A DNA stretch of 51,502 nt, from NCBI RefSeq assembly GCF_003334255.1, contig NZ_QOWU01000037.1. One strand, given 5' to 3'. This document shows, piece after piece, positions 23,779 through 51,425 of the stretch. Source of the DNA: Escherichia coli (GTDB lineage Bacteria > Pseudomonadota > Gammaproteobacteria > Enterobacterales > Enterobacteriaceae). Positions within the stretch are counted from its first letter, which is position 1. Every line of letters begins with the position of its first letter. A program made the position numbers and the translations under genes. A model generated the notes under the pieces. That model did not search any database. It was given only the letters and a program-made list of their open reading frames with translations, and was not told where the DNA came from.

Positions 23779-24861
23779 ATGAAAAAATTAACAGTGGCAA
23801 TTTCTGCTGTAGCTGCATCAGTACTGATGGCGATGTCTGCTCAGGCAGCTGAAATTTATAATAAAGACAGTAACAAGCTGGATCTGTACGGGAAAGTTAA
23901 TGCTAAGCACTACTTCTCCTCTAATGATGCAGATGATGGTGATACTACTTATGCCCGTCTTGGCTTCAAAGGTGAAACCCAAATCAACGATCAACTGACT
24001 GGTTTCGGTCAGTGGGAATATGAATTCAAAGGCAACCGCGCTGAATCTCAAGGTTCCTCCAAAGATAAAACCCGTCTTGCCTTCGCTGGCCTGAAATTCG
24101 GTGACTACGGCTCCATCGATTACGGCCGTAACTACGGTGTAGCATACGACATCGGTGCGTGGACTGACGTCCTGCCAGAATTCGGTGGTGACACTTGGAC
24201 TCAAACAGATGTGTTCATGACTGGTCGCACCACTGGTGTTGCAACTTATCGTAACAACGACTTCTTTGGTCTGGTTGATGGTCTGAACTTTGCTGCTCAG
24301 TATCAGGGTAAAAATGACCGCACTGACGTAACTGAAGCTAATGGTGATGGTTTCGGTTTCTCCACTACTTATGAGTATGAAGGATTCGGTGTAGGTGCAA
24401 CCTATGCTAAATCTGATCGCACTAATAATCAGGTTATCTACGGTAACAACGGTCTGAATGCTTCTGGTCAAAATGCTGAAGTATGGGCAGCTGGTCTGAA
24501 ATATGATGCGAACAACATCTATCTGGCCACCACCTATTCTGAAACCCAGAACATGACTGTTTTTGGTAATAACCATATTGCCAACAAAGCACAAAACTTC
24601 GAAGCTGTTGCACAATATCAGTTCGACTTCGGCCTGCGTCCATCCGTTGCTTACCTGCATTCTAAAGGAAAAGACTTGGGTGTTTGGGGTGATCAGGACC
24701 TGGTTGAATATGTTGATGTAGGTGCAACCTATTACTTCAACAAAAATATGTCCACTTTTGTTGACTACAAAATCAACCTGATTGATAAGAGCGATTTCAC
24801 GAAAGCATCTGGCGTTGCTACCGATGATATCGTTGCTGTAGGTATGGTTTACCAGTTCTAA
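23779..24861 (+). CDS. nmpC: Phage-borne general porin (NmpC/Lc family moron)
   Basis: Signal peptide followed by [17 protein letters not shown]... and a C-terminal VGMVYQF. It is a paralogue of PhoE at 41335-42390. Confidence 0.9.
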
Positions 24862-25023
24862 TTTGATTACTAAAAGATATGTTGTGGGAGGCTTTGCCTC
24901 CCCAACATATAAGTGGCTCCCTCAAGCCACTTCCTTTAGAAGCACAACCTTGCTTCTAACTATACAAACCTTCTGTTATATATTACCCTTTATTTTTGGG
25001 GGCGTTTCAACGCCCCATTTTTA
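24862..25023 (+). ncRNA. Highly structured porin 3' region, candidate IpeX-like sRNA
   Basis: Four consecutive near-perfect hairpins (24877-24910, 24911-24932, 24936-24959, 24998-25016), the last with a T-run. In DLP12 the IpeX sRNA is described from the equivalent nmpC-downstream position (recalled). Confidence 0.4.
24998..25023 (+). terminator. Rho-independent terminator of the porin / 3' RNA
   Basis: ggggcg-tttcaa-cgcccc followed by atttttaa. Confidence 0.55.
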
Positions 25024-25049
25024 ATAACTTTTAGTAAATAATTGGCGTA

Positions 25050-25433
25050 TTAATTAGAGTTATTAACAACGATATCCATCTCTAACCGGATATCTAATGC
25101 CATTAACATCCCTTCAATTATGCCCTCAGCCTTCTGTAACCTTTTCCCGATATAACCATCAGAGCAGCAATGCTTACCTGCCAGTGACATGAATGTCATA
25201 CCGACTACATAATAATCTACTAATAAATCGTGCAAATCGCTGTTGTTCTTTTTCAGACGGGCCATGCACCCGCAAATGATCATCGCGTCATCGTCACAAC
25301 ATTGCGGGCGAGATTTTACTTTTGAAGTAATTAATCCCTTAAAACCGGCGGCAATGGACGACCAGGTCACATCTTCATGATTATTAGCCGCCCACGCTCC
25401 CCAACGCTCAAGAACCATCTGAATATCACGCAT
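25050..25433 (-). CDS. Late antiterminator Q (DLP12 QuuD-type)
   Basis: [24 protein letters not shown]... is a 127-aa form. The Met at 25433 is preferred as the start. Confidence 0.85.
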
Positions 25434-25518
25434 CAACTTACTCCACAAAAATCAGACCAGAACGCCAATTACAAGCAAAAATCAACAAAACAGTATTAGT
25501 TGATTGTTATCTCTGACT

Positions 25519-25659
25519 TCATACTCCTGCTCCTGTCAGGGTTTTGGCGTAATTCTTCAGTATTCGGTAATCGGTCAAAACAGAACCGGGGAAACGATAT
25601 AAGCGCAGACGCCCCCAGCGGTGGCGAAGAAGTTCTGCCATATTAAACTCAAACATCAT
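25519..25659 (-). CDS. ylcG: YlcG-like small protein (46 aa); not in the ORF track
   Basis: Hand translation gives [46 protein letters not shown]. There is an ATGA overlap with the rusA stop. Confidence 0.6.
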
Positions 25660-26018
25660 TCATTCCCCATTTCGGTGATGGTCAGTTCCAGCCTCCCACC
25701 TTTGGTAACAGGCATCTTCACAACACGGTAATCAACGACCTGAGCATCATCCAGCCAGAAACCTGCTTTGGTGAGTGCGTCAAAAGCGGCTTTTTGCAGA
25801 TTATCCAGGTCACGGCGACGGCGATCCGGCATGTGGCACTCAATACGGATTTTCACTGGCATAGCCAGGCCGATATCCAGCATGGAGCCTTTGATGATTC
25901 GGGCGACGTTATCGCGGTATGCCTGCCCTTCTGCGCTGACGTGCGTGCGCCCGCGATTATGGCGGTAATAGCGATTATTGCTCGGAGGCCAGGGTAATGT
26001 GATGCTGTAGGTATTCAC
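25656..26018 (-). CDS. rusA: Holliday junction resolvase RusA
   Basis: [38 protein letters not shown]..., 120 aa. Confidence 0.9.
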
Positions 26019-26305
26019 GCCTTAATTACCCCCTCTTTCAGCCAGATAACCTGCGTTCTCGCCATACCTTCCAGCGCGCATTCTTTTGCATATCCAGCGT
26101 CAACAAAATGCGTGCGGCGGTCGATTTCGTCGTGGCAGGCAGAACATGCAATGGTGGCAATCAGGTCTGGCGGTTTCGTACCGGTGCCGCACAATCCAGT
26201 CAGCCGGATATGTGCCAGTACAGACGTTTCAGGGTTGCCATTACATACGCCAGGGATTCTTACCTGGCATTCCCGACCACGCGCTGCTTTTCTCAAATCA
26301 GCCAT
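26015..26305 (-). CDS. ybcO: YbcO-like (DUF1364) putative nuclease
   Basis: [34 protein letters not shown]...[10 protein letters not shown] Cys/His metal-binding pattern is present. Confidence 0.75.
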
Positions 26306-26468
26306 GATTCCTCCTTGCTGCCAGTCGCAACCATTTTTTATCAACCAGGCTAGCGGTATATCCGAGCAGTGTTGGTATTTCGGATGGTTTCAGCTCAGGC
26401 TTACGCTTACGACGATTTGGTACTCTGTAGATGTGTCCGTTCATGACACGAATAAGCGGTGTAGCCAT
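26298..26468 (-). CDS. ninE: NinE (56 aa); not in the ORF track
   Basis: Hand translation gives [56 protein letters not shown]. Both ends overlap the neighbouring genes. Confidence 0.65.
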   Translation of the reverse strand: MATPLIRVMNGHIYRVPNRRKRKPELKPSEIPTLLGYTASLVDKKWLRLAARRNHG

Positions 26469-26923
26469 TACGCCTCCTGCTTGTCGCGCAGCAGCTGGAA
26501 CTCGCAGCTCTGCGGAATAGTCAGGTGGCAGCCAATATTCATCGCCCAGGCTTCAACCTTACACAGGAAGACATACATCTCTCCGCTATCAAGATTGGAG
26601 GTATGACGTAATGACTGAATGGTGGTGATTTCACCGGTTACGACATCAACCAGTTCTTTGGTTTCATAACCGAGATAAGTGTGTTTGAGAGCATCTTTTA
26701 CCCAAGCTGGAGTGGCGAACGTTTTACCCCTGCTGATGAGGTATTCACTGATTTCGCTGTACCACATGTGGCTGAGTGCATTCTGGGAAAGACTGCGTCT
26801 CTCGCGCCACGGTTTAAGCACCATGCGAAAGCATTTGCCGTCCTCCAGATAAGGCTGGATCTGCTGGCCGATAGCGGTGAAGTTACCGCGATGCAATTTG
26901 ATACCATCTTGTGGGAGGTTCAC
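26468..26923 (-). CDS. ybcN: YbcN-like (DUF1367) nin-region protein
   Basis: GTG start with a GGAGG Shine-Dalgarno. [39 protein letters not shown]... matches DLP12 YbcN as recalled. Confidence 0.8.
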
Positions 26924-27110
26924 GCTTCACCTCCGCAGAGATCAAACGCTGGATGCAAAATATCGCAGGTGCATTTCTGCATCTGTGAATGGAGAAGAGA
27001 GGTTGGATTGTATGTGCGCATAAACGTCCCCGTTTAGCGCAGAAGTCACCGGAGTTGTTCAGGCTCCGATGACATGATTATGGCGGGTTGATTATGGAAA
27101 ATCAATCAAG

Positions 27111-27620
27111 CTATGTTTCATCGGCGAGGTCATCATCTGTGACAATCATGAGGTTAAAGAATGAAATAATGTTTAACCACTGCGAGTAAATATCGCTCGT
27201 CATGCTGGTTAGCTCCTCTCCGTGAAAGAAGGCATCAGGCCCAACCTCATAGTTGAGCTCTTCAAAAAGCTCCATGTTTAATTGGCTAATAAAGAATTGC
27301 TTCAGACCTTTCATTGCATCCTGATTGTTGGTATCTGAGTAATTTATTATGCTCCCCATTGCCATGTTCAAACATCGAACAATATTGGCTGCGTCATGAA
27401 AGCTCCAGTCAGCCCCTTTCTTTCCTTTTGAGTATGAATTCGCTCTCTCAGCGCAAGCTTTTAATGTCTCGTACAAATACTGCTTTCCTTGCAACTGCAA
27501 AGCTTTTTCGGATGTGGCCCTGCTAGCTTCTGAGGATCGCCATGCTAAATAAGTTGCTACCGCAGATGCGATAGCTGCAATCGCAGAAACTGCATCTATA
27601 CCGTTATCCCAACCAGACAT
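27111..27620 (-). CDS. AT-rich moron: N-terminally membrane-anchored protein of unknown function
   Basis: 169 aa. One TM helix (GIDAVSAIAAIASAVATYLAW) is followed by a helical soluble domain. Base composition is clearly AT-richer than the flanking nin genes. Confidence 0.6.
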   Translation of the reverse strand: MSGWDNGIDAVSAIAAIASAVATYLAWRSSEASRATSEKALQLQGKQYLYETLKACAERANSYSKGKKGADWSFHDAANIVRCLNMAMGSIINYSDTNNQDAMKGLKQFFISQLNMELFEELNYEVGPDAFFHGEELTSMTSDIYSQWLNIISFFNLMIVTDDDLADET

Positions 27621-27646
27621 AAAAACCCCCTCGATTATTTGAGGGG
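27621..27646 (-). terminator. nin-region intrinsic terminator abutting the moron start codon
   Basis: On the minus strand: cccctc-aaataatc-gagggg then TTTTT, followed directly by the ATG at 27620. The descending stem arm doubles as the only Shine-Dalgarno-like sequence. Confidence 0.5.
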
Positions 27647-27669
27647 ATTATACCTTCAAAGTTTCCGCG

Positions 27670-27864
27670 CTACCCATTCATAACTAAAGCTTTTGCTTTC
27701 CAATGAGAAAGCGCGCTATGTTCGCTAGAACCTGTTTCGACTATATGGCGCCCCCAGGAATCTCCCCATGCTCTCCACGTTGACTTGCCGGTTTGGACTA
27801 CTGTGACAACATACTCTTTGCCGTCGATGTTAACTTCATGCTGCACTGGTGATTGTGATTTCAT
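27670..27864 (-). CDS. Hypothetical small protein (64 aa from MKSQ; 73 aa if started at 27891)
   Basis: AGAGG lies 8 nt upstream of the ATG at 27864. No recognisable motif. Confidence 0.45.
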   Translation of the reverse strand: MKSQSPVQHEVNIDGKEYVVTVVQTGKSTWRAWGDSWGRHIVETGSSEHSALSHWKAKALVMNG

Positions 27865-27915
27865 TTTCAAACCTCTGCTTATCGTTGACATCGCAATTAT
27901 GCTGTCACGACATAA

Positions 27916-28722
27916 TCACTTCGCCTCCTGCTGCGGTGCTGCTGCGATCATGGCCTTCCATTGGTGGTCTGGGCTCCATAATCTACCGCCATCTTCACAC
28001 TCTTCCTGCGCCTGATGGTACGCCTCACGCATTTCTGGAGTTGGCTCCTTAGGAACCAGCACCCAACCATCCGGAATCACCGGAGAGTTGCTGACGGGCG
28101 ACTCGGAAATTTTTGGCGAAGAATCTAGGGCTGGCGCGGTCTGCATGGTGGTGGGCGACTCGGCTTTTTCGGCACCCTGAAGCATGGCGTCGCGGCATCC
28201 GTCATACGCTTCTTTCATAGCATCACGCACCCATCCGACAGGTTTCTGCTCAGTCAACTCACACCATTTCTCGAATGTGGGCACAGATACCGGAACTGGC
28301 GGTGCTGCATAAAGCGCCTGACAACTCCAGCCAGACCAGTGAGCACCCTCCGCTCTCTCATCATCTTCAGGGCGAACAAGCGTGACTTCGCTCGGGTGTT
28401 TCCTGTGTGACCACAGCCAGGCTACGGTTTCGGCATTGGCTGGCTCTGGCGGGGCGGAGTAAAAATACTCATCCTCAATCCCATCAACGGGCTTTGAGAA
28501 GCCGATAAAATCACCATAATGCCAAGGATAGGGGCCGTATGGCTCAGAGGTCACACGACGCCACCGGTGAATGGCAGGCTCCGCTTCGAGCGATGCCAGC
28601 GCGATACGCAGTGCCGCCAGCGTGTTGCTGTCGCCTTCGTCCAGACCGAACGGGATTTCATCTCTGGCTGCTTCCATGTCGGCAATTTTCTGCTGCAGCC
28701 ATTGTTTGGTAATAGTGCTCAT
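27916..28722 (-). CDS. Hypothetical nin-region protein (268 aa)
   Basis: Long ORF coupled to the upstream gene, acidic and Pro/Trp-rich. Typical of variable lambdoid accessory genes. Confidence 0.55.
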   Translation of the reverse strand: MSTITKQWLQQKIADMEAARDEIPFGLDEGDSNTLAALRIALASLEAEPAIHRWRRVTSEPYGPYPWHYGDFIGFSKPVDGIEDEYFYSAPPEPANAETVAWLWSHRKHPSEVTLVRPEDDERAEGAHWSGWSCQALYAAPPVPVSVPTFEKWCELTEQKPVGWVRDAMKEAYDGCRDAMLQGAEKAESPTTMQTAPALDSSPKISESPVSNSPVIPDGWVLVPKEPTPEMREAYHQAQEECEDGGRLWSPDHQWKAMIAAAPQQEAK

Positions 28723-29132
28723 GATGCCTCTCCTTTACCGGATGCGGCGGCGATCAGCTTCTGCGCCTGCTGAATGTCAGGATTGCCTGCAATCATCACT
28801 TCTGGCGCGTCACAGTCACCGCCAAGGTCAAGAATGCGCTCATGTCCGGTACGCAGGCAGGATTTGTATCCTGAAACCGTCTGCTTGAGCGATTCGGTCA
28901 GCACAGCAATCCTCTGGTCTTTGGCTTCCAGCTCATCCAGCAGCGCCAGCACTGTGGCTGGGTTGGCTACGGAGTTCAGCGCGTTCAAGGCAGTGATATC
29001 TGCATCAAGCTGAGTTCCTTCTGCCAGTGAGATATCGAAAATGTCATCAGGCGGCATAACACTAAGGCGCTCATGTGCACCAACTGCTGCCTCAGCGATT
29101 TCACGTAATGCGCGTTTGTCGATGTTGCTCAT
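28719..29132 (-). CDS. Ead/Ea22-like family protein
   Basis: MSNIDKRALREIAEAA... N-terminus and a coiled-coil middle, as in Ea22-like proteins. Confidence 0.6.
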   Translation of the reverse strand: MSNIDKRALREIAEAAVGAHERLSVMPPDDIFDISLAEGTQLDADITALNALNSVANPATVLALLDELEAKDQRIAVLTESLKQTVSGYKSCLRTGHERILDLGGDCDAPEVMIAGNPDIQQAQKLIAAASGKGEAS

Positions 29133-29147
29133 TCTTCATCCTCCAAC

Positions 29148-29360
29148 TCAGATACGGCGTCCATTACATCTGAGCCGCGAATGGTTTCGAATGCCACACA
29201 AGACCATTTCAAAGCACAGGCGCTCATGCGGGTGCGGAGATTGCCAATACTTGAAGCCAGGACGATGCGAATAGCCCTGCATCGCATAAAACTCTCCGGC
29301 CAATTCAATGGCGGCATCCACCAGTTCACGGTTTGTCATTGGTTTGTCGATGTTGCTCAT
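29148..29360 (-). CDS. Hypothetical protein sharing the MSNIDK 5' module; possibly frameshifted
   Basis: 70-aa ORF. An overlapping frame (29129-29329) ends in a plausible acidic C-terminus that is coupled to the next gene. Confidence 0.35.
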   Translation of the reverse strand: MSNIDKPMTNRELVDAAIELAGEFYAMQGYSHRPGFKYWQSPHPHERLCFEMVLCGIRNHSRLRCNGRRI

Positions 29361-29557
29361 TGGGCGGCCTCCTGGATTAACTTTTCGAGAATGGCATCAA
29401 GGGCTTTCCGTTTTCCGATATACCCGCCACCAACCCACTCTCCACGAAGCAAGGCGTAATATTTCCCGTCGTCTTCGTGATACGGTCCTCGGATAGACCA
29501 GTCGGTTGTGATGGCGTCGATAGCCTTTTTAGTTTCTGCGAAATCCATCATGCTCAT
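29357..29557 (-). CDS. Hypothetical small protein (66 aa from MSMMD)
   Basis: The chosen start sits immediately after the ren stop. The longer ORF-track version would overlap ren. Confidence 0.45.
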   Translation of the reverse strand: MSMMDFAETKKAIDAITTDWSIRGPYHEDDGKYYALLRGEWVGGGYIGKRKALDAILEKLIQEAAQ

Positions 29558-29847
29558 ACCCCTACCCTCCCCCAAACCATCAACACCCGCTTCATCGCGG
29601 CACTCTGGCGACACTCCTTAAAAATCAGGTTAGTGCTCACCTTTCCTTCCCGTTCTTCCCTGGTAGCGAATCTGTAATACACCGTTCGCCAGACCTTACC
29701 ATCTATGACCAAGATTCCTGCCCGCGCCATTTTAGCCGCAGCCTGATTTATGCTGGTTACTGTTGCGCCTGTTACCGCGGCAACGTCCAGCGCACAGAAG
29801 CTCTTATGCGTCCCCAGGTAATAAATAATTGCCTCTTTACCCGTCAT
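29554..29847 (-). CDS. ren: Ren (Rex exclusion-escape protein of lambda)
   Basis: MTGKEAIIYYLGTHKSFCALDVAAVTGATVTSINQAAAKMARAG... closely matches lambda Ren as recalled. Confidence 0.85.
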   Translation of the reverse strand: MTGKEAIIYYLGTHKSFCALDVAAVTGATVTSINQAAAKMARAGILVIDGKVWRTVYYRFATREEREGKVSTNLIFKECRQSAAMKRVLMVWGRVGV

Positions 29848-30545
29848 ACACTTGCTCCTTTCAGCCCAAACTTAGCTTTGATTTCTGCGATCTTCGCCAG
29901 AGCCTGTGCACGATTTAGAGGTCTACCGCCCATAACAGGAAGTTGTTTTACTGGTTCAGGTATCGTCTCACCACGGTTAATTCGCGCTGTCATACAGGTC
30001 AGTTCATCGGCAGCCTTGCGCCGTAATTCCGCGTCAGTCAGCGCATTGGCCCGCATGTTCTGGTACAAGTTGGTAACCAACCAGTAATGCGCGTTCGATT
30101 TCCACGGATAAGACTCTGCATCCGGATACAGGCCACGCTTCCGGCAATACTCGTAAACCATATCAACCAGCTCGCTGACGTTTGGCAGCCCGGCGTTAAC
30201 AGATGCTTCTTCCCGGCACCAGGCGACAAACTGCCCGGGTGATGGCAGGAATGGTCGATTCTGCCGACGGGCTACGCGCATTCCAGCGTTAACCTGTTCC
30301 ATTGTGGTGATCCCGTTTTCCCGGAAAGCCAGAACCCACTGGCGACGGATTTCGTTCAGTTCATTCTGGTCACGGTTAGCCAGGCTCGCCGGGAAAGTTG
30401 CCAGTAACTGGCTGAACACACCGTTGATGATCTGCGCTACCTGCTGTACCTGTGGCTTTTCGTCGTACTGTTCCGGCATGTTGTTGGCGATCCGGCGCAT
30501 CTGCTCACAGTCAAAGTTAACCATCTGTGCGGCGATGTTTTTCAT
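29844..30545 (-). CDS. P: Replication protein P (DnaB loader), lambda type
   Basis: 233 aa, near-identical to lambda P as recalled (MKNIAAQMVNFD.EQMRRIANNMPEQYDEKPQVQQ...). Confidence 0.95.
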   Translation of the reverse strand: MKNIAAQMVNFDCEQMRRIANNMPEQYDEKPQVQQVAQIINGVFSQLLATFPASLANRDQNELNEIRRQWVLAFRENGITTMEQVNAGMRVARRQNRPFLPSPGQFVAWCREEASVNAGLPNVSELVDMVYEYCRKRGLYPDAESYPWKSNAHYWLVTNLYQNMRANALTDAELRRKAADELTCMTARINRGETIPEPVKQLPVMGGRPLNRAQALAKIAEIKAKFGLKGASV

Positions 30546-31471
30546 AGCTCCACCCCGTAAATCCAGTCAGTGTTCGTCAGGTCGAGTTTTGGTTTGCCGG
30601 CTGTCACGCCAGCCTGTTGCTTGTTTCGGTTGATTTCGAGCTGGGTCCACTTGTCGCGGAGTTTGGCCGGACTTAGCACGTTACCGGACCAGAAGTTGTC
30701 CTGGCATGCCCAGCGGAACAGCACGCACATGTCGCGGTGGTTACGTCCGTCACGTTCACGCATCAGGCGGATATCGTTAGCCCACCCAGCAAAATTCGGT
30801 TTTCTGGCTGATGGCGCGATGGTCTTCACCATGTCAAACATCCACTCTGCGGCGGTCAGGTCTTCTGCTGTCCCCCACTTGCTGCCGCTCTGAATTGCAG
30901 CATCTGGTTTCACCACAGGAAGATCGTTTTCTGGTTGGTCAGAGGATTCGCCAGAATTCTCGGACGAAAAAGGTTTTATATTGTCTTTTGTTAGTTTGTC
31001 TTTTGTGTTTACCTGATTCGGGTAAACGCCTTTACCTGATTTGGGTAAACTTTTTTTACCTGATTCAGGTAAATTTACCTCTTTCAGGTAAACTTTATTT
31101 TTCTTACCTGATTCGGGTAATGTTGACCATTCACTGACCACATTATTAATGCCGGTATTCCGCCCGCTCTGAATAAAAATCCCACGCTTTACCAGAACAC
31201 TTTTTGCAGCAGAACACTTGTGCGGCAATATCCCGGTTAATTCGGAAAGTTGCTCGTTGCTAACCCAATCCAGTTTTTTATTAAAGCCATATGTTTTGCG
31301 CATGACAGCCAGAAAGACCAGAAGCTGGTGCTGTGTTAATCCGGCCAGCATCACAGCTTCCAGCAACTCATTTGCAATGCGCGTATAACCATCATCGAGA
31401 TCTGCCACGCGCGGCTCCTTTTGTGCCGCATCCGGCACTGGAAAATTGAATATCTCAGCAGTGTTTGCCAT
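30542..31471 (-). CDS. O: Replication initiator O (novel N-terminal DNA-binding half, lambda-like C-terminal P-interaction half)
   Basis: The start MANTAEIFNF.. aligns with the lambda O start MTNTAKILNF and has a GGAGGA Shine-Dalgarno. The C-terminal SENSGESSDQPENDL..NTDWIYGVEL is lambda-like. Confidence 0.9.
   Translation of the reverse strand: MANTAEIFNFPVPDAAQKEPRVADLDDGYTRIANELLEAVMLAGLTQHQLLVFLAVMRKTYGFNKKLDWVSNEQLSELTGILPHKCSAAKSVLVKRGIFIQSGRNTGINNVVSEWSTLPESGKKNKVYLKEVNLPESGKKSLPKSGKGVYPNQVNTKDKLTKDNIKPFSSENSGESSDQPENDLPVVKPDAAIQSGSKWGTAEDLTAAEWMFDMVKTIAPSARKPNFAGWANDIRLMRERDGRNHRDMCVLFRWACQDNFWSGNVLSPAKLRDKWTQLEINRNKQQAGVTAGKPKLDLTNTDWIYGVEL
31008..31121. repeat. Origin iterons (five copies of TTACC-N8-GGTAA) inside the O gene
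   Basis: Copies start at 31008, 31031, 31055, 31074 and 31103 (tttacctgattcgggtaaac and variants). An AT-rich tract at 30968-31007 lies on the O-downstream side, as in ori-lambda. Confidence 0.8.
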
Positions 31472-31557
31472 AATTCCTCCCGCAATGAGTGTGTTACGAT
31501 TTGCACCTGAAAGTCGGTTCTGTTCCAGCAGACCGGCTTTCGCCATTTCTGAACCTG

Positions 31558-32097
31558 TCATATCGCCCCCAGCATGGTAGTAACCATCGCCATCAATGGA
31601 CCAGCCAGATCTGGGTCCACACGAAACATCGACACAATACCTTCACTAATTTCCTTCAGTTTCTGGTGGCGTGGTGCGTTGAGAATGACAGCCTGTTTTG
31701 CCTCACTGAGTTCCTTTTCCATTTCAGCCAACCTAGCCATGAAGCTATCCTGCTCAACCAGGTAACCGCGATATTCCAGCGGTAGTACCGCCAGAATTGC
31801 CGGGGTCAGTTCACGCACGTTATTTCGGTATTTTTCAGAATCGAATTTGTTATCGAGGAAGCGGAACAGCTTCTGGCGTGCACGGCTGACATCATCAGGG
31901 AAATCGATGGTGCCGCCGCCCTGCTCCCGATACTCATTCACAATGAGTGTGGCAACGACATCCTGATTATCTACAGCCGACCAGGCGCGGACGGCATCAC
32001 GGATTTTTTCGTGGCCTGGCACCTGTTTTGTTTGAGAACGATTTATCACCGCAGTCGGGCTAAATCCGCTAGTCTGTTGGTATGTAAGTGGTTGCAT
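31558..32097 (-). CDS. YdaT-like protein (CII-position regulator of Rac-type immunity regions)
   Basis: EYREQGGGTIDFP and LTPAILAVLPLEYR resemble Rac YdaT motifs. It lies directly after the cro-like gene. Confidence 0.65.
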   Translation of the reverse strand: MQPLTYQQTSGFSPTAVINRSQTKQVPGHEKIRDAVRAWSAVDNQDVVATLIVNEYREQGGGTIDFPDDVSRARQKLFRFLDNKFDSEKYRNNVRELTPAILAVLPLEYRGYLVEQDSFMARLAEMEKELSEAKQAVILNAPRHQKLKEISEGIVSMFRVDPDLAGPLMAMVTTMLGAI

Positions 32098-32141
32098 AAT
32101 TGACTCCTTTAGTTTGAATTGACTGTTAAGTTGATTGCTTA

Positions 32142-32154
32142 TTGTTAAAGAGCG
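32142..32154 (-). promoter_or_regulatory. Consensus boxA element just downstream of cro (nutR position)
   Basis: The minus strand reads CGCTCTTTAACAA. GCTCTTTAACAA equals the rrn boxA consensus. It starts 13 nt after the cro-like stop codon. Confidence 0.6.
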
Positions 32155-32166
32155 TGAAATGGAAAT

Positions 32167-32397
32167 TTAAGCTGCGTTCTTTTCGGTGTGTGGAAACAAC
32201 TTCGGAAGATCCGGGCGAATCTGGTATGCCTTCACTACTCCACCAGTAGCCGTAACAATGCTGCCGACATGTTCAGGGGATACCTTTGCTTTGTTGTGAA
32301 GCCACTTATAGACGGCCTGCTGTGAAACTTCGCAAGCAGCGCCCAGTTTCTTTTGTGAACCAACGATATTGATCGCTGTTTTGATAGCTGGGTTCAT
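32167..32397 (-). CDS. Cro/YdaS-like HTH repressor
   Basis: 76 aa. HTH (KKLGAACEVSQQAVYKWLH), a GGAGG Shine-Dalgarno, and divergent orientation from the S24 repressor. Confidence 0.75.
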   Translation of the reverse strand: MNPAIKTAINIVGSQKKLGAACEVSQQAVYKWLHNKAKVSPEHVGSIVTATGGVVKAYQIRPDLPKLFPHTEKNAA

Positions 32398-32424
32398 AAC
32401 AACCTCCGTGGTTAATTTGAATCA

Positions 32425-32453
32425 AGATTAAAACTATGGTTGTTTTTAGTCAA
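32425..32453 (-). promoter_or_regulatory. Putative pR (TTGACT-17-TAATCT) with a 17-bp operator in the spacer
   Basis: -35 at 32448-32453 and -10 at 32425-32430 on the minus strand. The palindromic operator aaaactatggttgtttt at 32430-32446 fills the spacer. Confidence 0.5.
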
Positions 32454-32466
32454 CAACCATTTTCGT

Positions 32467-32495
32467 TTGATGGAATAAAACCTTGGTTGTACATT
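32467..32495 (+). promoter_or_regulatory. Putative pRM (TTGATG-17-TACATT), giving a leaderless repressor mRNA
   Basis: The -10 ends 6 nt before the ATG at 32502. No Shine-Dalgarno is present. An operator-like aaaaccttggttgtaca (32477-32493) overlaps the promoter. Confidence 0.4.
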
Positions 32496-32501
32496 TGGAC
32501 T

Positions 32502-33191
32502 ATGAAAACAACACTCTCAGAAAGACTTAAAGAAGCCAGATTAGCGCGAGGCCTTACACAAAAGGCGCTTGGGGATTTGGTCGGGGTTAGCCAGGCTGCT
32601 ATTCAGAAAATCGAAACAGGGAAAGCTAATCAAACAACTAAAATCGTGGAGATCGCGAACGCTTTGGGTGTGCGCGCAGAATGGTTATCTTCTGGCGTTG
32701 GAAATATGTCAGACAGTACAGTGCAACCAATACAATCAACTGTCAGCCATTCCAAATACTTCAAGATTGACGTTCTTGATATAGAAGTCAGTGCTGGGCC
32801 GGGAGTCATCAACCGTGAGTTTGTAGAAGTTCTACGCTCGGTTGAGTACTCGTTTGACGATGCTCGTCACATGTTCGATGGTAGGAAGGCGGAAAATATC
32901 CGCATCATTAACGTGCGTGGTGACAGCATGTCAGGAACGATCGAACCAGGTGATCTGCTGTTCGTTGATATCACAGTTAAATCTTTCGACGGTGATGGTA
33001 TCTATGCGTTTCTGTACGACGACACAGCCCATGTAAAGCGCCTGCAAATGATGAAGGATAAGCTGCTGGTCATCTCTGATAACAAAAGCTACTCACCGTG
33101 GGACCCGATCGAGAAAGACGAGATGAACCGGGTGTTCATCTTCGGTAAGGTTATTGGGAGCATGCCGCAGACATATAGGAAGCATGGGTAG
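32502..33191 (+). CDS. CI-type prophage repressor (HTH plus S24 LexA-like autocleavage domain)
   Basis: MKTTLSERLKEARLARGLTQKALGDLVGVSQAAIQKIETGK... followed by GDSM..(Ser) and ..VKRL (Lys) peptidase S24 motifs. Confidence 0.85.
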   Translation: MKTTLSERLKEARLARGLTQKALGDLVGVSQAAIQKIETGKANQTTKIVEIANALGVRAEWLSSGVGNMSDSTVQPIQSTVSHSKYFKIDVLDIEVSAGPGVINREFVEVLRSVEYSFDDARHMFDGRKAENIRIINVRGDSMSGTIEPGDLLFVDITVKSFDGDGIYAFLYDDTAHVKRLQMMKDKLLVISDNKSYSPWDPIEKDEMNRVFIFGKVIGSMPQTYRKHG

Positions 33192-33312
33192 TACCAATTA
33201 AAAATTATCAACTGGGCATTGTGCTCATTCAGTAAAGAACTAATTCCTATCTTTGCTCTAGGTAGTAATATTAAGCCACCGCAATAATATCTTTACCTAA
33301 CGGCGTAAGAAT

Positions 33313-33339
33313 CCCGGTCACCGTGCCGGGTTTTCTTTT
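33313..33339 (+). terminator. Rho-independent terminator after the repressor gene
   Basis: cccgg-tcaccgtg-ccggg followed by ttttcttttg. Confidence 0.6.
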
Positions 33340-33464
33340 GCCCTCCCCTCATCACACACACCGTTAAAAAAACCACCATAACCTCGCTTCAGTTATCGCT
33401 ATGCGATTCAAGTCACAAAATAAATCCATCCTAAATACAACCAGTTATATCTAAAACAACCAAT

Positions 33465-33509
33465 AAAACAACTTTTGTTGTTGACGATAAAACAACTATA
33501 GTTTTAAAT
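33465..33509 (+). promoter_or_regulatory. Putative pL (TTGACG-17-TTAAAT) with two 17-bp operators
   Basis: aaaacaactatagtttt (33489-33505) lies in the spacer and aaaacaacttttgttgt (33465-33481) abuts the -35, 24 bp centre to centre. They share AAAAC-N7-GTTTT with the pR operator. Confidence 0.5.
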
Positions 33510-33786
33510 AAGTTCATCGCAACAACACAACGATACGGCAACTACCTGATTCACCGTTGCGATGACCGCTTAGATCCGCAGTTTGAATTTCAGCAGGCTT
33601 CGGGGAGTGCGAGGGGTGAAACGGACGCGTGAACGTCGGTGTGACCAGCTGAAATTAACTCAACATTTCATACCTTAGTCGCTTCAACGAGGCGGCTTAG
33701 TTATGACAACCGGCGGCCATCCACCGCCTGAATACGCGCAGAAGTCTCTATATGTTCAGCAGCCCAGCTTACGGGCAGGAGTTTTT

Positions 33787-33993
33787 ATGGTTCATCAACA
33801 TTATGGAACGCAGACCGTTAATCGAGGTGCGGTCATGCCAGGAATGCTGGTCAAACACAAAGATGGTACCTGGACTGCATCAGCTAATTTACGCGGACGG
33901 CTTTATCTGCATCGCGGCATCGAGTGCACTTATACCCGTGATTTGCTCGTGGAAGTTTTTCTCGACGGACGCGGTAACGGCCTGAATCACTAA
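33787..33993 (+). CDS. Hypothetical first protein of the pL operon (68 aa from MVHQ)
   Basis: AGGAG lies 5 nt upstream of the ATG at 33787. It is not Arg-rich and shows no resemblance to N, Kil or CIII. Confidence 0.4.
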
Positions 33994-34068
33994 TCCCCTT
34001 TCCTGTTTTCCTAATCAGCCTGGCATTTCGCGGGCGATATTTTCACAGCCATTTTCAGGAGGTCAGCC

Positions 34069-34365
34069 ATGAACGCTTATTACATTCAGGATCGTCTTGA
34101 GGCTCAGAGCTGGGCGCGTCACTACCAGCAGATCGCCCGTGAAGAGAAAGAGGCAGAACTGGCAGACGACATGGAAAAAGGCCTGCCCCAGCACCTGTTT
34201 GAATCGCTATGCATCGATCATTTGCAACGCCACGGGGCCAGCAAAAAAGCCATTATCCGTGCGTTTGATGACGATGTTGAGTTTCAGGAGCGCATGGCAG
34301 AACACATCCAGTACATGGTTGAAACCATTGCTCACCACCAGGTTGATATTGATTCAGAGGTATAA
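34069..34365 (+). CDS. gam: Gam (RecBCD inhibitor), lambda type
   Basis: [44 protein letters not shown]... is near-identical to lambda Gam as recalled. Confidence 0.95.
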
Positions 34366-38488: not shown

Positions 38489-38564
38489 TGGTGCCGATAA
38501 TAGGAGTCGAACCTACGACCTTCGCATTACGAATGCGCTGCTCTACCAACTGAGCTATATCGGC
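38489..38564 (-). tRNA. thrW: tRNA-Thr (anticodon CGT)
   Basis: The reverse complement, GCCGATATAGCTCAGTTGGTAGAGCAGCGCATTCGTAATGCGAAGGTCGTAGGTTCGACTCCTATTATCGGCACCA, folds as a cloverleaf with a TTCGTAA anticodon loop and a CCA end. Confidence 0.95.
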
Positions 38565-41334: not shown

Positions 41335-42390
41335 ATGAAAAAGAGCACTCTGGCATTAGTGGTGATGGGCATTGTGGCATCTGCATCTGTACAGGCTGCA
41401 GAAATATATAATAAAGACGGTAATAAACTGGATGTCTATGGCAAAGTTAAAGCCATGCATTATATGAGTGATAACGCCAGTAAAGATGGCGACCAGAGTT
41501 ATATCCGTTTTGGTTTTAAAGGCGAAACACAAATTAACGATCAACTGACTGGTTATGGTCGTTGGGAAGCAGAGTTTGCCGGTAATAAAGCAGAGAGTGA
41601 TACTGCACAGCAAAAAACGCGTCTCGCTTTTGCCGGGTTGAAATATAAAGATTTGGGTTCTTTCGATTATGGTCGTAACCTGGGGGCGTTGTATGACGTG
41701 GAAGCCTGGACCGATATGTTCCCGGAATTTGGTGGCGATTCCTCGGCGCAGACCGACAACTTTATGACCAAACGCGCCAGCGGTCTGGCGACGTATCGGA
41801 ACACCGACTTCTTCGGCGTTATCGATGGCCTGAACTTAACCCTGCAATATCAAGGGAAAAACGAAAACCGCGACGTTAAAAAGCAAAACGGCGATGGCTT
41901 CGGCACGTCATTGACATATGACTTTGGCGGCAGCGATTTCGCCATTAGTGGGGCCTATACCAACTCAGATCGCACCAACGAGCAGAACCTGCAAAGCCGT
42001 GGCACAGGCAAGCGTGCAGAAGCATGGGCAACAGGTCTGAAATACGATGCCAATAATATTTATCTGGCAACTTTCTATTCTGAAACACGCAAAATGACGC
42101 CAATAACTGGCGGCTTTGCCAATAAGACACAGAACTTTGAAGCGGTCGCTCAATACCAGTTTGACTTTGGTCTGCGTCCATCGCTGGGTTATGTCTTATC
42201 GAAAGGGAAAGATATTGAAGGTATCGGTGATGAAGATCTGGTCAATTATATCGACGTCGGTGCTACGTATTATTTCAACAAAAATATGTCAGCGTTTGTT
42301 GATTATAAAATCAACCAACTGGATAGCGATAACAAATTGAATATTAATAATGATGATATTGTCGCGGTTGGCATGACGTATCAGTTTTAA
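41335..42390 (+). CDS. phoE: Phosphoporin PhoE
   Basis: [38 protein letters not shown]..., 351 aa. Confidence 0.95.
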
Positions 42391-50684: not shown

Positions 50685-51011
50685 ATGACTAAAAATACTC
50701 GTTTTTCCCCCGAAGTCCGTCAGCGGGCGATTCGTATGGTTCTGGAAAGTCAGGATGAATATGACTCACAGTGGGCGGCAATTTGTTCCATTGCCCCAAA
50801 GATTGGCTGTACGCCGGAGACTCTGCGTGTCTGGGTTCGCCAGCATGAGCGGGATACCGGGGGCGGTGATGGAGGGCTCACCACCGCTGAACGTCAGCGT
50901 CTGAAAGAGCTGGAACGTGAAAATCGTGAACTGCGCCGCAGTAACGATATCCTTCGCCAGGCTTCCGCTTATTTTGCGAAGGCGGAGTTCGACCGCCTCT
51001 GGAAAAAATGA
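50685..51011 (+). CDS. IS629 OrfA (HTH transposase subunit)
   Basis: [105 protein letters not shown]. Confidence 0.9.
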
Positions 51012-51425
51012 TGCCACTGCTGGATAAGCTGCGTGAGCAGTACGGGGTCGGACCGGTATGCAGCGAACTGCATATTGCCCCGTCAACGTATTACCATTGT
51101 CAGCAACAGCGACATCATCCGGATAAACGCAGTGCCCGTGCGCAGCACGATGACTGGCTGAAGAGAGAGATACAGCGCGTATACGATGAAAATCATCAGG
51201 TGTACGGTGTGCGTAAAGTCTGGCGTCAGTTGTTACGGGAAGGAATCAGGGTGGCCAGATGTACAGTGGCGCGCCTCATGGCGGTTATGGGACTTGCCGG
51301 TGTTCTCCGGGGTAAAAAGGTCCGCACTACCGTCAGCCGGAAAACCGTTGCCACAGGTGACCGCGTAAACCGTCAGTTCGTGGCAGAACGTCCTGACCAG
51401 CTGTGGGTGGCTGATTTTACTTACG
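51008..51425 (+). pseudogene. IS629 OrfB (DDE transposase), truncated before the catalytic core
   Basis: [46 protein letters not shown]... The native continuation VSTWQGF is replaced by unrelated sequence from 51426. Confidence 0.8.

Follow-up and report, generated by a model that had tools for sequence, protein, structure and literature searches.

The hairpin that immediately precedes the 169-aa gene is probably a tR2-like terminator within a portable module, and its 3' arm would double as the ribosome-binding site of the cargo in the slot behind it, the 169-aa gene being one such cargo. This reading comes from the sequence of one prophage and its comparison with related ones. Unmodified transcription from upstream would stop at the hairpin. 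In read-through transcripts the Shine-Dalgarno sequence would be locked in the stem (about 10 kcal/mol) and hence poorly translated, except by ribosomes that load on the flanking A/U-rich single strands. The adjoining TATAAT may act as a weak promoter with a -10 element only, in which case RNA would start at A27640, lack the 5' arm and be freely translated. With such hairpin-free RNA, a repressed prophage could express the 169-aa gene.

Genomic context of the hairpin

The window, by which we mean the whole 51,502-nt stretch of E. coli DNA that was analysed, is of the DLP12-like lambdoid prophage type with its early-right operon on the minus strand. The genes follow in the order O, P, ren, Ead/Ea22, the 268-aa gene (then the 64-aa ORF), the hairpin, the 169-aa gene, ylcH and ybcN/NinB, and further downstream ninE, ybcO, rusA, ylcG and quuD. 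An earlier note on this DNA had placed the 169-aa gene between conserved nin genes, which we had to correct. The site lies between the variable genes on the ren/Ead side and the first nin gene (ylcH-ybcN/NinB). The genes around it are:

27916..28722, minus strand: 268-aa hypothetical gene, upstream, in the variable region on the ren/Ead side
27670..27864, minus strand: 64-aa gene, starting at the second ATG at 27864 (the 73-aa reading starts at 27891)
27111..27620, minus strand: 169-aa gene (ORF, RefSeq CDS, PHROG 1779 match)
26920..27021, minus strand: ylcH-like 33-aa gene, the first conserved gene after the slot (RefSeq annotation of an identical genome)
26468-26923, minus strand: ybcN/NinB, adjoining the ylcH-like gene downstream

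In related phages the stop codon of the 268-aa gene directly adjoins the TATAAT-hairpin module, and the L026/L025 junction reads ...CAGCAGAAGTGATG with TATAAT immediately after it. The 268-aa neighbour gave no match to PADLOC-DB 2.0 profiles at E up to 1. Antitermination signals within the window were limited to boxA; no N gene or N ORF and no recognisable put RNA were found there. The fold stability of the pL leader was not unusual (z = -0.63), and Rfam contained no family matching the hairpin or the pL and pR leaders.

The 169-aa gene and its protein

The proposed 169-aa ORF was borne out by RefSeq, where it is annotated as hypothetical protein WP_000017329.1 in an identical genome. The protein matched the PHROG 1779 profile with E = 2.5e-77 (residues 3-167 of the protein, positions 2-169 of 169 in the profile), and this family is annotated as having no known function. 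ATG 27620 is the sole possible start of the ORF, because the TAA within TATAAT is an in-frame upstream stop codon. G+C was 0.40-0.44 across the gene versus 0.50-0.58 in the flanks, and dN/dS was 0.25 against the Klebsiella copy.

The distribution of the gene confirmed that it is accessory and rare. Of 5426 complete E. coli genomes, about 25 carry the allele of the window and 181 carry an allele that is 47% identical to it. A tblastn search of isolated phages recovered only the 47%-identical allele, in PhiR26_1 and PhiR5_1; it is preceded by a 170-nt AT-rich intergenic region that resembles a separate transcription unit. The family has 36 cluster representatives among 1.84 billion, and the identified carriers are all Enterobacterales.

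After the hydrophobic helix at its N terminus, the protein continues as a helical domain (about 125 aa) and ends in the acidic tail TDDDLADET. Its AlphaFold2 model is all-helical, with a core pLDDT of about 80. The N-terminal helix is rich in Ala and Ser, contains an Asp and is only marginally hydrophobic. The best Kyte-Doolittle 19-residue window scored 1.74, and the range across the family was 1.5-2.4. The single hydrophobic helix and the helical fold that had been predicted both stand, while the transmembrane assignment is weakened by the marginal hydrophobicity (1.74, with an Asp). Across the family, the N-terminal side of the helix is net acidic and the C-terminal side carries +2 to +5 basic residues. 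Judged from these features, the most likely prediction is a single-pass inner-membrane protein whose N terminus faces outwards, with both the helical domain and the acidic tail on the cytoplasmic side.

Searches of Pfam, NCBIfam and PADLOC with the 169-aa protein gave no matches, and Pfam against all 22 family members returned only noise, such as SecM at E >= 0.019 on the Ala-rich helix. A profile search of PDB sequences found none at E up to 5, and Foldseek of the model against BFVD found none at E of 0.001 or better. Structure and profile searches, a check proposed in the earlier note, thus gave neither a fold nor a defence-family match. The accompanying hint at exclusion or abortive infection is unsupported, since PADLOC, Pfam, NCBIfam, PDB and BFVD all lacked matches and the slot holds mostly non-defence cargo. 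Literature searches on the protein accessions, PHROG 1779, the HK639 terminators and the tR2/nin terminators found nothing specific.

We compared the protein with SieA of P22, which has three transmembrane segments and the motif FxRYPxEAxxFNK (PMC10883804). The two are similar in size (SieA has 162-164 aa) and prophage-encoded, and an inner-membrane location is predicted for the 169-aa protein too. However, the 169-aa protein has a single weak helix instead of three segments, its family alignment lacks the motif and no homology was detected. We would guess, with low confidence, that the 169-aa protein is an accessory acting at the membrane on phage or host processes, for example in superinfection exclusion. 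That it is not an essential phage function is likewise our best guess, also held with low confidence.

The upstream 64-aa gene

The upstream ORF of 64-73 aa exists (27670-27891, 73 aa), and the conserved start at 27864 gives 64 aa. We rejected the 73-aa reading because homologues begin at the second ATG; they are 81-94% identical, and the full-length ones have 64 aa. In frame, dN/dS was 0.36 and 0.21, versus 1.8 and 0.67 out of frame. The AlphaFold2 model has four beta strands and one helix with a pLDDT of 86. In matching E. coli genomes the ORF is without annotation. The protein gave no matches in Pfam, NCBIfam, PHROG or PADLOC (PADLOC-DB 2.0, E up to 1), no tblastn match in phages and no Foldseek match in the PDB. 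From the coding signature, this is probably a real 64-aa gene.

The earlier note had described both ORFs as an AT-rich insert. This holds for the 169-aa gene (0.40-0.44) but not for the 64-aa ORF, which has a G+C of 0.47-0.50 and is not notably AT-rich. In the Klebsiella loci, a 167-aa homologue follows the 64-aa gene after 49 nt in all five that were read. Judged from its occurrence, the 64-aa gene appears to be a facultative neighbour of the 169-aa gene.

A terminator-type hairpin before the start codon

The predicted hairpin, cccctc-N8-gagggg with a T-run before the ATG, was found as described, at 27621-27646. Its elements, together with the hexamer upstream of it, are:

27647..27652, minus strand: TATAAT, adjoining the 5' arm; candidate -10 element with its canonical +1 at A27640, the first loop base
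27627..27646, minus strand: hairpin CCCCTC-AAATAATC-GAGGGG, a terminator-type stem-loop at the position of lambda tR2
27646-27641, minus strand: 5' arm CCCCTC, read from the sequence
27632-27627, minus strand: 3' arm GAGGGG, read from the sequence
27626..27632, minus strand: GAGGGGG, Shine-Dalgarno-like, whose GAGG core ends 8 nt before the A of the ATG
27626-27621, minus strand: T-run GTTTTT, directly before ATG 27620

On the minus strand the order is TATAAT, CCCCTC, AAATAATC, GAGGGG, GTTTTT and ATG, with the ATG 6 nt downstream of the hairpin. The core stem of 6 bp (5 G-C) extends to 9 pairs around a loop of 8 nt, and the calculated dG is -10.4 kcal/mol for the core and -13.7 with the A-U extension. 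In a terminator scan this was the best terminator-like site on the minus strand within 25000-32500 (9 pairs, 5 G-C), and the GUUUUUAUGU that follows the stem satisfies the T-run rule of the scan. The 26-nt hairpin pattern had 0.00 expected occurrences in shuffles of the window. With its 8-nt loop and 6-bp core stem, the hairpin is at the weak end of the range for intrinsic terminators.

All 16 variants of the hairpin that precede family members can fold, at dG values between -7.9 and -19.5 kcal/mol, and their loops measure 6 to 9 nt. Stem differences among them keep the pairing, through U-G wobbles and, in one case, through compensatory changes in both arms (CCCCTC/GAGGGG to CCCTTC/GAAGGG); three of the 16 have one mismatch. 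When the hexamer was fixed in the scan, at least 4 T in 5 were retained in 63 of 91 copies. In some relatives the T-run has decayed (ATTATT, ATTAAAG) and the hairpin persists, which means that termination may not be its only selected function. With a stem, a U-rich tract and pairing kept in evolution, the hairpin has the features by which an intrinsic terminator is predicted.

The Shine-Dalgarno sequence lies within the stem

It had been noticed that the only Shine-Dalgarno-like sequence (GAGGGGG) is the descending, 3' arm of the hairpin, and our analysis confirmed it. In folding calculations on the read-through RNA, the Shine-Dalgarno bases were unpaired with a probability of at most 0.01, and opening them cost 10.5 kcal/mol. 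On RNA starting at 27640 the unpaired probability was 0.30-0.86 and opening cost 1.5 kcal/mol. Expression had accordingly been predicted only from antiterminated transcripts or on opening of the structure. This prediction overlooks the perfect TATAAT that adjoins the hairpin, with +1 at the first loop base. As a counterpoint to that objection, no -35 element is conserved.

A portable junction module bounds a cargo slot

The arrangement is found beyond the 169-aa family. The module covers about 35 nt and comprises TATAAT, a G+C-rich 6-bp stem with a variable loop of 5-10 nt, a T-run and the ATG, which usually stands 5-9 nt after GAGGGG. Our module scan gave at least 120 matches in viral contigs, and a second pattern gave 85. 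The module precedes about ten unrelated first genes of the nin region, among them genes for theta homologues (PF06440), a 60-aa basic protein, DUF1643 proteins, a TonB_C-like protein and a 192-aa membrane protein. From this distribution, the hairpin appears to be a shared junction element and not a special control device of the 169-aa gene.

A second conserved element closes the slot on the other side:

27050..27105, minus strand: linker at the 3' end of the slot, beginning 5 nt past the stop codon of the 169-aa gene and leading into ylcH-ybcN

Homology with 2960 of 5426 E. coli genomes stops at 27105. The linker is also present in HK639, Turner, KO-TP1 and CobraSix, and it contains TTGATT-17-CATAAT, a promoter-like match in our scan. 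We took the hairpin module and this 3' linker as the slot boundaries and found 25 distinct cargo sets between them, every one with a G+C of 0.40-0.47. The slot was never empty in these sets. In related phages it holds 1-9 ORFs, and four or fewer in all but one locus. The commonest occupant is a replication accessory, a homologue of Pol III theta/Hot, and the cargo is mostly unrelated to defence. Cargo therefore seems to be exchanged rather than added.

Conservation of the TATAAT hexamer

TATAAT or TATACT was present in 16 of 16 protein-anchored variants. When the tail was fixed in the scan and the hexamer was not required, TATAAT occurred in 68 of 80 matches, and the only in-context substitutions were TACAAT and CATAAT, both of which keep A2 and T6. 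At least 32 different 12-nt contexts lie upstream of the hexamer, and the homology boundary falls exactly at its first T. The module copies carried 46 distinct loop sequences, and RTTTTT was found in 39 of 91 copies with the hexamer fixed. By these counts the hexamer is better conserved than either the loop or the T-run. Where the hexamer is broken (CTATTA, ATTACC), the theta gene that follows has a stop at codon 3.

We then looked for further promoter elements. At the true -35 position 16 of 98 contexts scored at least 4/6, compared with 5-20 at shifted control positions. Upstream of the hexamer there is thus no -35 enrichment, and no TGn element is conserved; the consensus promoter scan does not call TATAAT a promoter. 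The CCCCTC discriminator is C-rich and unfavourable to promoter function. A palindromic relative, TATAAT...ATTATA, exists, which shows that the hexamer can be a mere stem extension. A strong sigma-70 promoter at TATAAT was rejected on the negative -35 enrichment test.

Comparison with known systems

Lambda tR2 likewise lies between ren and ninB and consists of a G+C-rich hairpin and a T-run just before the start codon of the first nin gene. There is no sequence similarity between the two, and stem, loop and ribosome-binding-site arrangement all differ. The lambda Shine-Dalgarno sequence (GGGGGAGAGGG) follows the T-run and is not in the stem, and no TATAAT adjoins the lambda stem. The hairpin thus seems to be the counterpart of lambda tR2 in this phage group, as a positional analogue only. 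By analogy, we presume that both block non-antiterminated transcription into nin and Q. A much closer relative is the terminator annotated in the HK639 record (41560-41586), which is the same module nearly base for base: CTATAATCCCCTCAAATAACCGAGGGGGTTTTATG. The record does not mention the embedded Shine-Dalgarno sequence or the -10-like hexamer, and the HK639 cargo differs, with a 60-aa ORF and then a theta homologue. A single stem likewise serves both termination and Shine-Dalgarno pairing in other sequestering hairpins, for example in translational operators and in the expression platforms of riboswitches. For our hairpin we found neither a domain that would sense a ligand or protein nor an alternative antiterminator structure.

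The 169-aa gene had been called a moron. In the sense of Juhala et al. (2000), morons have a deviant composition, their own promoter and terminator, an insertion between otherwise adjacent genes and expression in the repressed prophage; gene 15 of HK97 is an example (PMC3594210). Like morons, the 169-aa gene is AT-rich, sporadic among related phages and has a small, membrane-associated predicted product. It has, however, no downstream terminator of its own and replaces other cargo in a bounded slot. From 27111 to ybcN we found no credible terminator-like site, only a weak 5-pair site inside ylcH. Similarity of the 169-aa protein to YebO/gp15 (HK97 gene 15) was not found. The moron label therefore holds only in part: a terminator of its own and an insertion between adjacent genes are lacking, and the candidate promoter is a perfect, conserved TATAAT without a conserved -35 or TGn element. 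The 169-aa gene does have the deviant composition, yet all slot cargo has a G+C of 0.40-0.47.

Alternative explanations

The 169-aa protein could instead be a delayed-early lytic accessory that, like the other nin products, is synthesised from antiterminated pR transcripts only once the prophage is induced and does nothing in the lysogen, which we regard as possible but not the better reading. The gene lies inside the early-right operon without a verified promoter or terminator of its own, the replication accessory (theta/Hot homologue) that most often occupies the slot fits such a role, and lytic growth of lambda does not require the nin genes as a group (PMC8022706). However, Shine-Dalgarno masking would make lytic translation inefficient, the conserved TATAAT would still need an explanation, and the 47%-identical allele behind its 170-nt AT-rich intergenic region is apparently a separate transcription unit. 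It is quite improbable that the 64-aa and 169-aa genes form a functional pair, such as a defence or toxin-partner system, whose expression ratio is set by an intercistronic terminator. The same 49-nt spacer is found in the 22 E. coli genomes carrying the whole 64-aa-ORF interval and in Klebsiella prophages with different flanks (DUF1367 or NinB downstream, different upstream genes), purifying selection acts on both ORFs and the 64-aa model is confident (pLDDT 86). On the other hand, 169-aa homologues with 88-96% identity occur in L006, L024 and L026 without the 64-aa gene, all more distant family members lack it too, the small gene has a 58-aa relative whose coupled partner is an unrelated 210-aa gene, and neither protein matched PADLOC. 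The close homologues without the 64-aa gene rule out an obligate two-gene system. We give almost no credence to the inverted repeat being a DNA operator for a dimeric regulator that overlaps a promoter, and not an RNA hairpin. A perfect 6-bp repeat does directly follow a -10-like hexamer, but the arm spacing varies from 5 to 10 bp among homologous copies with 46 loop sequences, which is incompatible with a fixed protein-DNA geometry and rules the operator out. Moreover, the stem varies as an RNA helix would, by U-G wobble or compensatory changes, the repeat is followed by a T-run and the HK639 annotators label the same element a terminator.

The remaining alternative gives more weight to the hexamer. 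It would be a functional -10 with a start at the first loop base, its RNA would neither terminate nor mask the Shine-Dalgarno sequence, the cargo would be translated mainly from this prophage-active promoter, read-through lytic transcripts would be terminated or translationally silent, and the 169-aa gene would be a true moron expressed in the lysogen. This is conceivable but doubtful. In its favour, the perfect hexamer is separated from a loop A by exactly the 6 nt of the 5' arm, and it is conserved in all 16 variants and 68 of the 80 unbiased matches with substitutions that keep the critical A2 and T6, beyond the conservation of T-run and loop. At hexamer positions 1 and 3 the T never varies, although no pairing with the T-run is open to it. 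The homology boundary of at least 32 upstream contexts lies exactly at the first T, the theta genes behind broken hexamers (CTATTA, ATTACC) are interrupted by a stop at codon 3, and RNA from the start site has a free Shine-Dalgarno sequence (1.5 versus 10.5 kcal/mol on read-through RNA). Against it, neither a -35 nor a TGn element is conserved, the C-rich discriminator is unfavourable and the palindromic relative shows that TATAAT can arise for purely structural reasons. Without a terminator after the gene, its transcripts would also enter ninB-rusA-quuD, which a prophage should keep silent. The wider claim that the module is a portable switch, made of a -10 element, a terminator and a ribosome-binding site that overlap, in which the origin of the transcript sets translation, so that cargo would be translated specifically in the lysogen and be near-silent on the lytic early-right transcript, strikes us as unlikely on the sequence comparisons at hand. 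We thus prefer the tR2-like terminator with an embedded ribosome-binding site.

Significance of the module

Taken alone, the 169-aa gene adds another member to the uncharacterised accessory genes of lambda-like prophages, and its context is the more useful result. A short, sharply bounded module made of a terminator, an embedded ribosome-binding site and TATAAT marks a slot for cargo exchange, which a second linker closes, and this arrangement is found in many Enterobacterales prophages. Linker sequences have long been proposed as drivers of lambdoid mosaicism. The module and the 3' linker are a concrete example of them, and accessory cargo can easily be found by looking between both linkers. 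The module also offers a testable hypothesis, that the origin of the transcript could decide whether a gene is translated. If the 169-aa protein blocks phage infection, it would be a new single-pass membrane family among prophage defences.

The prophage and its gene order

The window carries a DLP12-like lambdoid prophage of E. coli, and its 1.1-kb interval 26900-28000 shows 100% identity to strains G1/2, G6/7 and G8. The early-right operon lies on the minus strand in the following order:

Start of the order, upstream of O (-): cro-like regulator and YdaT-like protein
31561-30542 (-): O, then P, ren and small ORFs
29132-28719 (-): Ead/Ea22-like gene
28722-27916 (-): 268-aa hypothetical gene, directly before the region of the 64-aa and 169-aa genes
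27021-26920 (-): ylcH, after the 169-aa gene
26923-26468 (-): ybcN/NinB, then ninE, ybcO, rusA, ylcG and quuD

This gene order positions the 169-aa gene at the junction of the variable ren/ead-side genes with the nin genes, and not between conserved nin genes as the earlier note had claimed.

Two overlapping ORFs at 29129-29360 (-) correspond to a frameshift-flagged RefSeq CDS of the identical genome (L001 8230-8461). The prophage also has a porin of the OmpC/NmpC type between quuD and the lysis genes (23779-24861, +), and in the identical genome the Iss serum-survival lipoprotein is found downstream of rzpD (L001 796-1089). Both are classic lysogenic-conversion cargo. The tRNA-Thr (CGU) gene beyond the exo/bet/gam region (38489-38564, -) may mark the attachment site of the prophage or be a tRNA carried by the phage. 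At 50966-51082 (+) there is a match to the Rfam ALIL pseudoknot (RF01497, 121 bits), the frameshift element of IS3-family insertion sequences, and an IS copy is therefore located near the window end.

The 169-aa gene and its hairpin

The 169-aa ORF (27111-27620, -) is genuine and corresponds to the RefSeq CDS WP_000017329.1. Its G+C content is 0.40-0.44 compared with 0.50-0.58 in both flanks, which bears out its earlier description as AT-rich. The minus strand reads ...GAAGG TATAAT CCCCTC AAATAATC GAGGGG GTTTTT ATG TCT..., and since the TAA within TATAAT is an in-frame upstream stop, the ATG at 27620 is the only usable start. In a consensus scan the hairpin was the top terminator-like site on the minus strand between 25000 and 32500. 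Its core has a dG of -10.4 kcal/mol, or -13.7 with three additional A-U/G-U pairs. The sole Shine-Dalgarno-like sequence of the gene is GAGGGGG; in the modelled read-through RNA its bases have a probability of 0.01 or less of being unpaired, and 10.5 kcal/mol is needed to open them. Sequence, terminator scan and folding thus agree with the earlier proposal that the only Shine-Dalgarno sequence is an arm of a terminator-type hairpin.

The hairpin is a shared junction module

We gathered relatives of the 169-aa protein from viral and genome contigs and compared their upstream regions. There were 16 distinct upstream variants, some with proteins only about 50% identical to the 169-aa protein, behind quite different upstream genes. 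The layout of TATAAT, a 6-8-pair stem, a 6-9-nt loop, a T-run and the start codon was kept in all 16, with TATACT replacing TATAAT in one clade. The stem substitutions were of the RNA type, with U-G wobbles (CTCCTC, CCTCTC). We also observed one double compensatory change (CCCCTC/GAGGGG to CCCTTC/GAAGGG), an extra G-C pair in one locus (L007) and a single mismatch in three variants. Reading the inverted repeat as a DNA operator was excluded because the arm spacing varies from 5 to 10 bp, and is also contradicted by the RNA-type substitutions.

Scanning IMG/VR for TATAATCCCCTC-N5-10-GAGGGG gave at least 120 matches, and the scan without the hexamer requirement (CCCCTC-N5-10-GAGGGGRTTTTTATG) gave 85 stretches. 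The commonest gene after the module encodes an 85-aa DNA polymerase III theta homologue (PF06440, E = 1.5e-34). The module also precedes genes for a 60-aa basic protein, DUF1643 proteins, a TonB_C-like exported protein, a 192-aa multi-pass membrane protein, an 82-aa protein, an 86-aa lipoprotein-like protein and a 298-aa protein. These genes are mutually unrelated; their ATG is mostly 5-9 nt past GAGGGG and codon 2 is frequently TCN. The buried ribosome-binding site is a generic property of the module and not a feature of the 169-aa gene.

Phage HK639 has the module (CTATAATCCCCTCAAATAACCGAGGGGGTTTTATG), labelled 'terminator' in its record. The lambda tR2 hairpin (CAGGCCTGC...GCAGGCCTG followed by T5) is at the equivalent map position, between ren and ninB, but its sequence is unrelated and lambda's Shine-Dalgarno comes after the T-run. 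These comparisons make the module an analogue of tR2 in position. The hairpin, a terminator at the tR2 site, is of a kind already known and annotated in HK639, while two twists common to all module copies are undescribed: the Shine-Dalgarno within the 3' arm and the strictly conserved TATAAT abutting the 5' arm.

A palindromic relative, TATAATCCCCTC-AGTATT-GAGGGGATTATA, occurs in three viral contigs (L098, L115 and L200). It matches on both strands, like a bidirectional terminator, and may be the evolutionary source of the module. A 60-aa basic ORF (MSNEEMTPAEKYKASMKRHKK...RKKRGRTAD) is conserved between the module and the theta gene in HK639 (L252 2086-2268) and about 20 viral contigs, and shares a TAATG overlap with the theta gene; it has no annotation in the HK639 RefSeq record and no Pfam family.

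The cargo slot

The slot holding the 169-aa gene is defined by two anchors, the 5' module and a 3' linker:

27050-27105 (-): conserved 3' linker closing the slot; it holds a promoter-like match, TTGATT-17-CATAAT, and an inverted repeat, TTGATT...AATCAA

This 56-nt linker is also present in HK639, Turner, IdasGreatGrand, KO-TP1 and CobraSix, and is annotated in none of these phages or E. coli genomes. Homology to 2960 of 5426 complete E. coli genomes restarts at 27105, five bases past the 169-aa stop codon. Between the anchors we found 25 distinct cargo sets of 0.5-2.8 kb with 1-9 ORFs (at most four in all but one locus). Since G+C is 0.40-0.47 in all of them, low G+C is typical of the slot. 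The boundaries of exchange are precise, at the start codon on one side and just past the stop codon on the other. The usual occupant is the theta homologue. Members of the 169-aa family, when present, take the first position; the order in one locus (L048) is a 166-aa homologue, theta and a 73-aa ORF. The allele in the window is rare and was seen in about 25 of 5426 genomes. A 47%-identical allele (WP_000990013.1) occupies the equivalent site in 181 genomes and in phages PhiR26_1 and PhiR5_1, behind a different 170-nt AT-rich region without the hairpin. In the ren-to-nin variable region of PhiR26_1, the opposite strand carries the defence gene PD-lambda-1 (L003 743-2245), about 1.6 kb upstream of this allele.

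As cargo of a defined exchange slot, the 169-aa gene is accessory and an orphan. Morons are defined by composition, promoter, terminator and insertion (PMC3594210). The gene has the composition of a moron, but not its terminator or insertion, and is not a classical one; its TATAAT is perfect and conserved, but -35 enrichment is absent. The earlier observation is confirmed and its interpretation upheld in part: an AT-rich gene with a terminator-embedded Shine-Dalgarno stands, but the gene is not a classical moron, and the hairpin is not specific to it, since the module precedes many unrelated genes.

The upstream 64-aa ORF

The small upstream ORF (27670-27864, -) is probably a real gene. Its homologues are 81-94% identical, mostly 64 aa long and start at the second ATG (27864). 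Comparison with Klebsiella gives a dN/dS of 0.36, and comparison with a 58-aa relative in strain SCU-113 gives 0.21, while the other two reading frames have 1.8 and 0.67. AlphaFold2 models the product with confidence (pLDDT 86) as four strands plus one helix, a fold that matched nothing in the PDB. PGAP annotates the ORF in none of the 22 E. coli genomes carrying the whole interval. In strain S51 (L005 2550-3032) residues 1-115 of the 268-aa gene have been joined in frame, through a deletion, to the C-terminal half of the ORF, and RefSeq lists the fusion product as hypothetical, 160 aa long.

In each of the five Klebsiella prophage loci examined, a 167-aa homologue follows 49 nt after the small gene, with varied flanks. 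An obligate partnership was rejected, since three loci (L006, L024 and L026) have close homologues of the 169-aa gene without the small gene, and the gene coupled to the 58-aa relative is an unrelated one of 210 aa; the S51 fusion speaks against it too. The 58-aa and 210-aa genes overlap by 4 nt in the equivalent slot of SCU-113 (L004 1790-2595), and the 210-aa protein has no Pfam match. This two-gene cargo is downstream of an Arc/antirepressor (P22AR) block.

The 169-aa protein

The protein matches PHROG 1779, a family without known function (E = 2.5e-77). Word-indexed search found 29 relatives, and exhaustive profile search of 1.84 billion clusters found 36 representatives, almost all 150-180 aa long. 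The carriers are E. coli, Klebsiella, Enterobacter, Citrobacter, Kluyvera, Phytobacter, Serratia and Scandinavium. The dN/dS against the Klebsiella copy is 0.25. The alignment conserves an Ala/Ser/Gly-rich hydrophobic helix, a terminal TD[ED]DLAD and the motifs YE.LKACAERAN, KGKKGA[DE]W..DAANIVR and QLNMELFEELNY. The AlphaFold2 model is all-helical with a mean pLDDT of 67 (about 80 for residues 40-157, low in the N-terminal helix and the tail). Hydrophobicity is marginal: over 19 residues the best Kyte-Doolittle score is 1.5-2.4 across the family and 1.74 in the 169-aa protein, whose hydrophobic segment contains an Asp. Since the segment is flanked by an acidic N-terminal and a basic C-terminal side, the predicted topology is N terminus outside and C terminus inside.

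A SieA-like identity was rejected, as SieA spans the membrane with three transmembrane segments and carries FxRYPxEAxxFNK as its motif (PMC10883804). A YebO/gp15-like identity was rejected as well. The location is only a weak prior for function. Ren is upstream, and PD-lambda-1 is found in the equivalent variable region of PhiR26_1; against this, the slot is usually occupied by a replication accessory.

Antitermination and the TATAAT hexamer

Between cI and gam (33191-34069) there was no N-like ORF, and neither the put nor the nut families of Rfam gave a match. A perfect rrn-type boxA (GCTCTTTAACAA) is positioned just after cro (32142-32153, -). The pL leader (33505-33690) forms long stem-loops, yet is not unusually stable (z = -0.63). 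Antitermination in this phage may be of the HK022/HK639 RNA-based type. The missing N-like ORF and put or nut match weaken firm statements on 'antiterminated transcripts'.

The TATAAT abutting the 5' arm is a perfect -10 hexamer, which the earlier note had passed over. We consider it rather doubtful that it acts as a promoter, although several observations point that way. In the hexamer-free scan TATAAT was present in 68 of 80 matches, whose 12-nt upstream contexts were of at least 32 kinds, with the substitutions TACAAT and CATAAT in comparable contexts. Four copies in viral contigs (L210, L220, L230 and L240) have a broken hexamer (CTATTA or ATTACC), and all four stand before theta-homologue genes that carry a stop at codon 3; they may be a single decaying lineage, or hexamer function may be linked to gene maintenance. 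When hexamer and stem were fixed, RTTTTT was kept in only 39 of 91 distinct copies, with 46 different loops, so the hexamer is under tighter constraint than the terminator's own T-run. Its Ts at positions 1 and 3 have no possible pairing partner in the T-run, so that selection for RNA pairing does not account for them. The 5' arm takes up the six positions -6 to -1, and therefore the canonical +1 is the first loop base, an A in 11 of the 16 variants. RNA begun there would lack the 5' arm, and its Shine-Dalgarno is predicted to be 0.30-0.86 unpaired and to cost 1.5 kcal/mol to open, compared with 10.5 for read-through RNA.

Against a promoter, there is no -35 enrichment (a score of at least 4/6 in 16 of 98 contexts at the true position versus 5-20 at shifted control positions), TGn is nearly never present and the discriminator is C-rich. 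With no terminator after the 169-aa gene, transcripts would also run on into ninB-quuD. As the palindromic relative shows, the hexamer can be nothing more than an extension of the stem in a bidirectional terminator. The module offers a testable idea, that translation would depend on the transcript start point.
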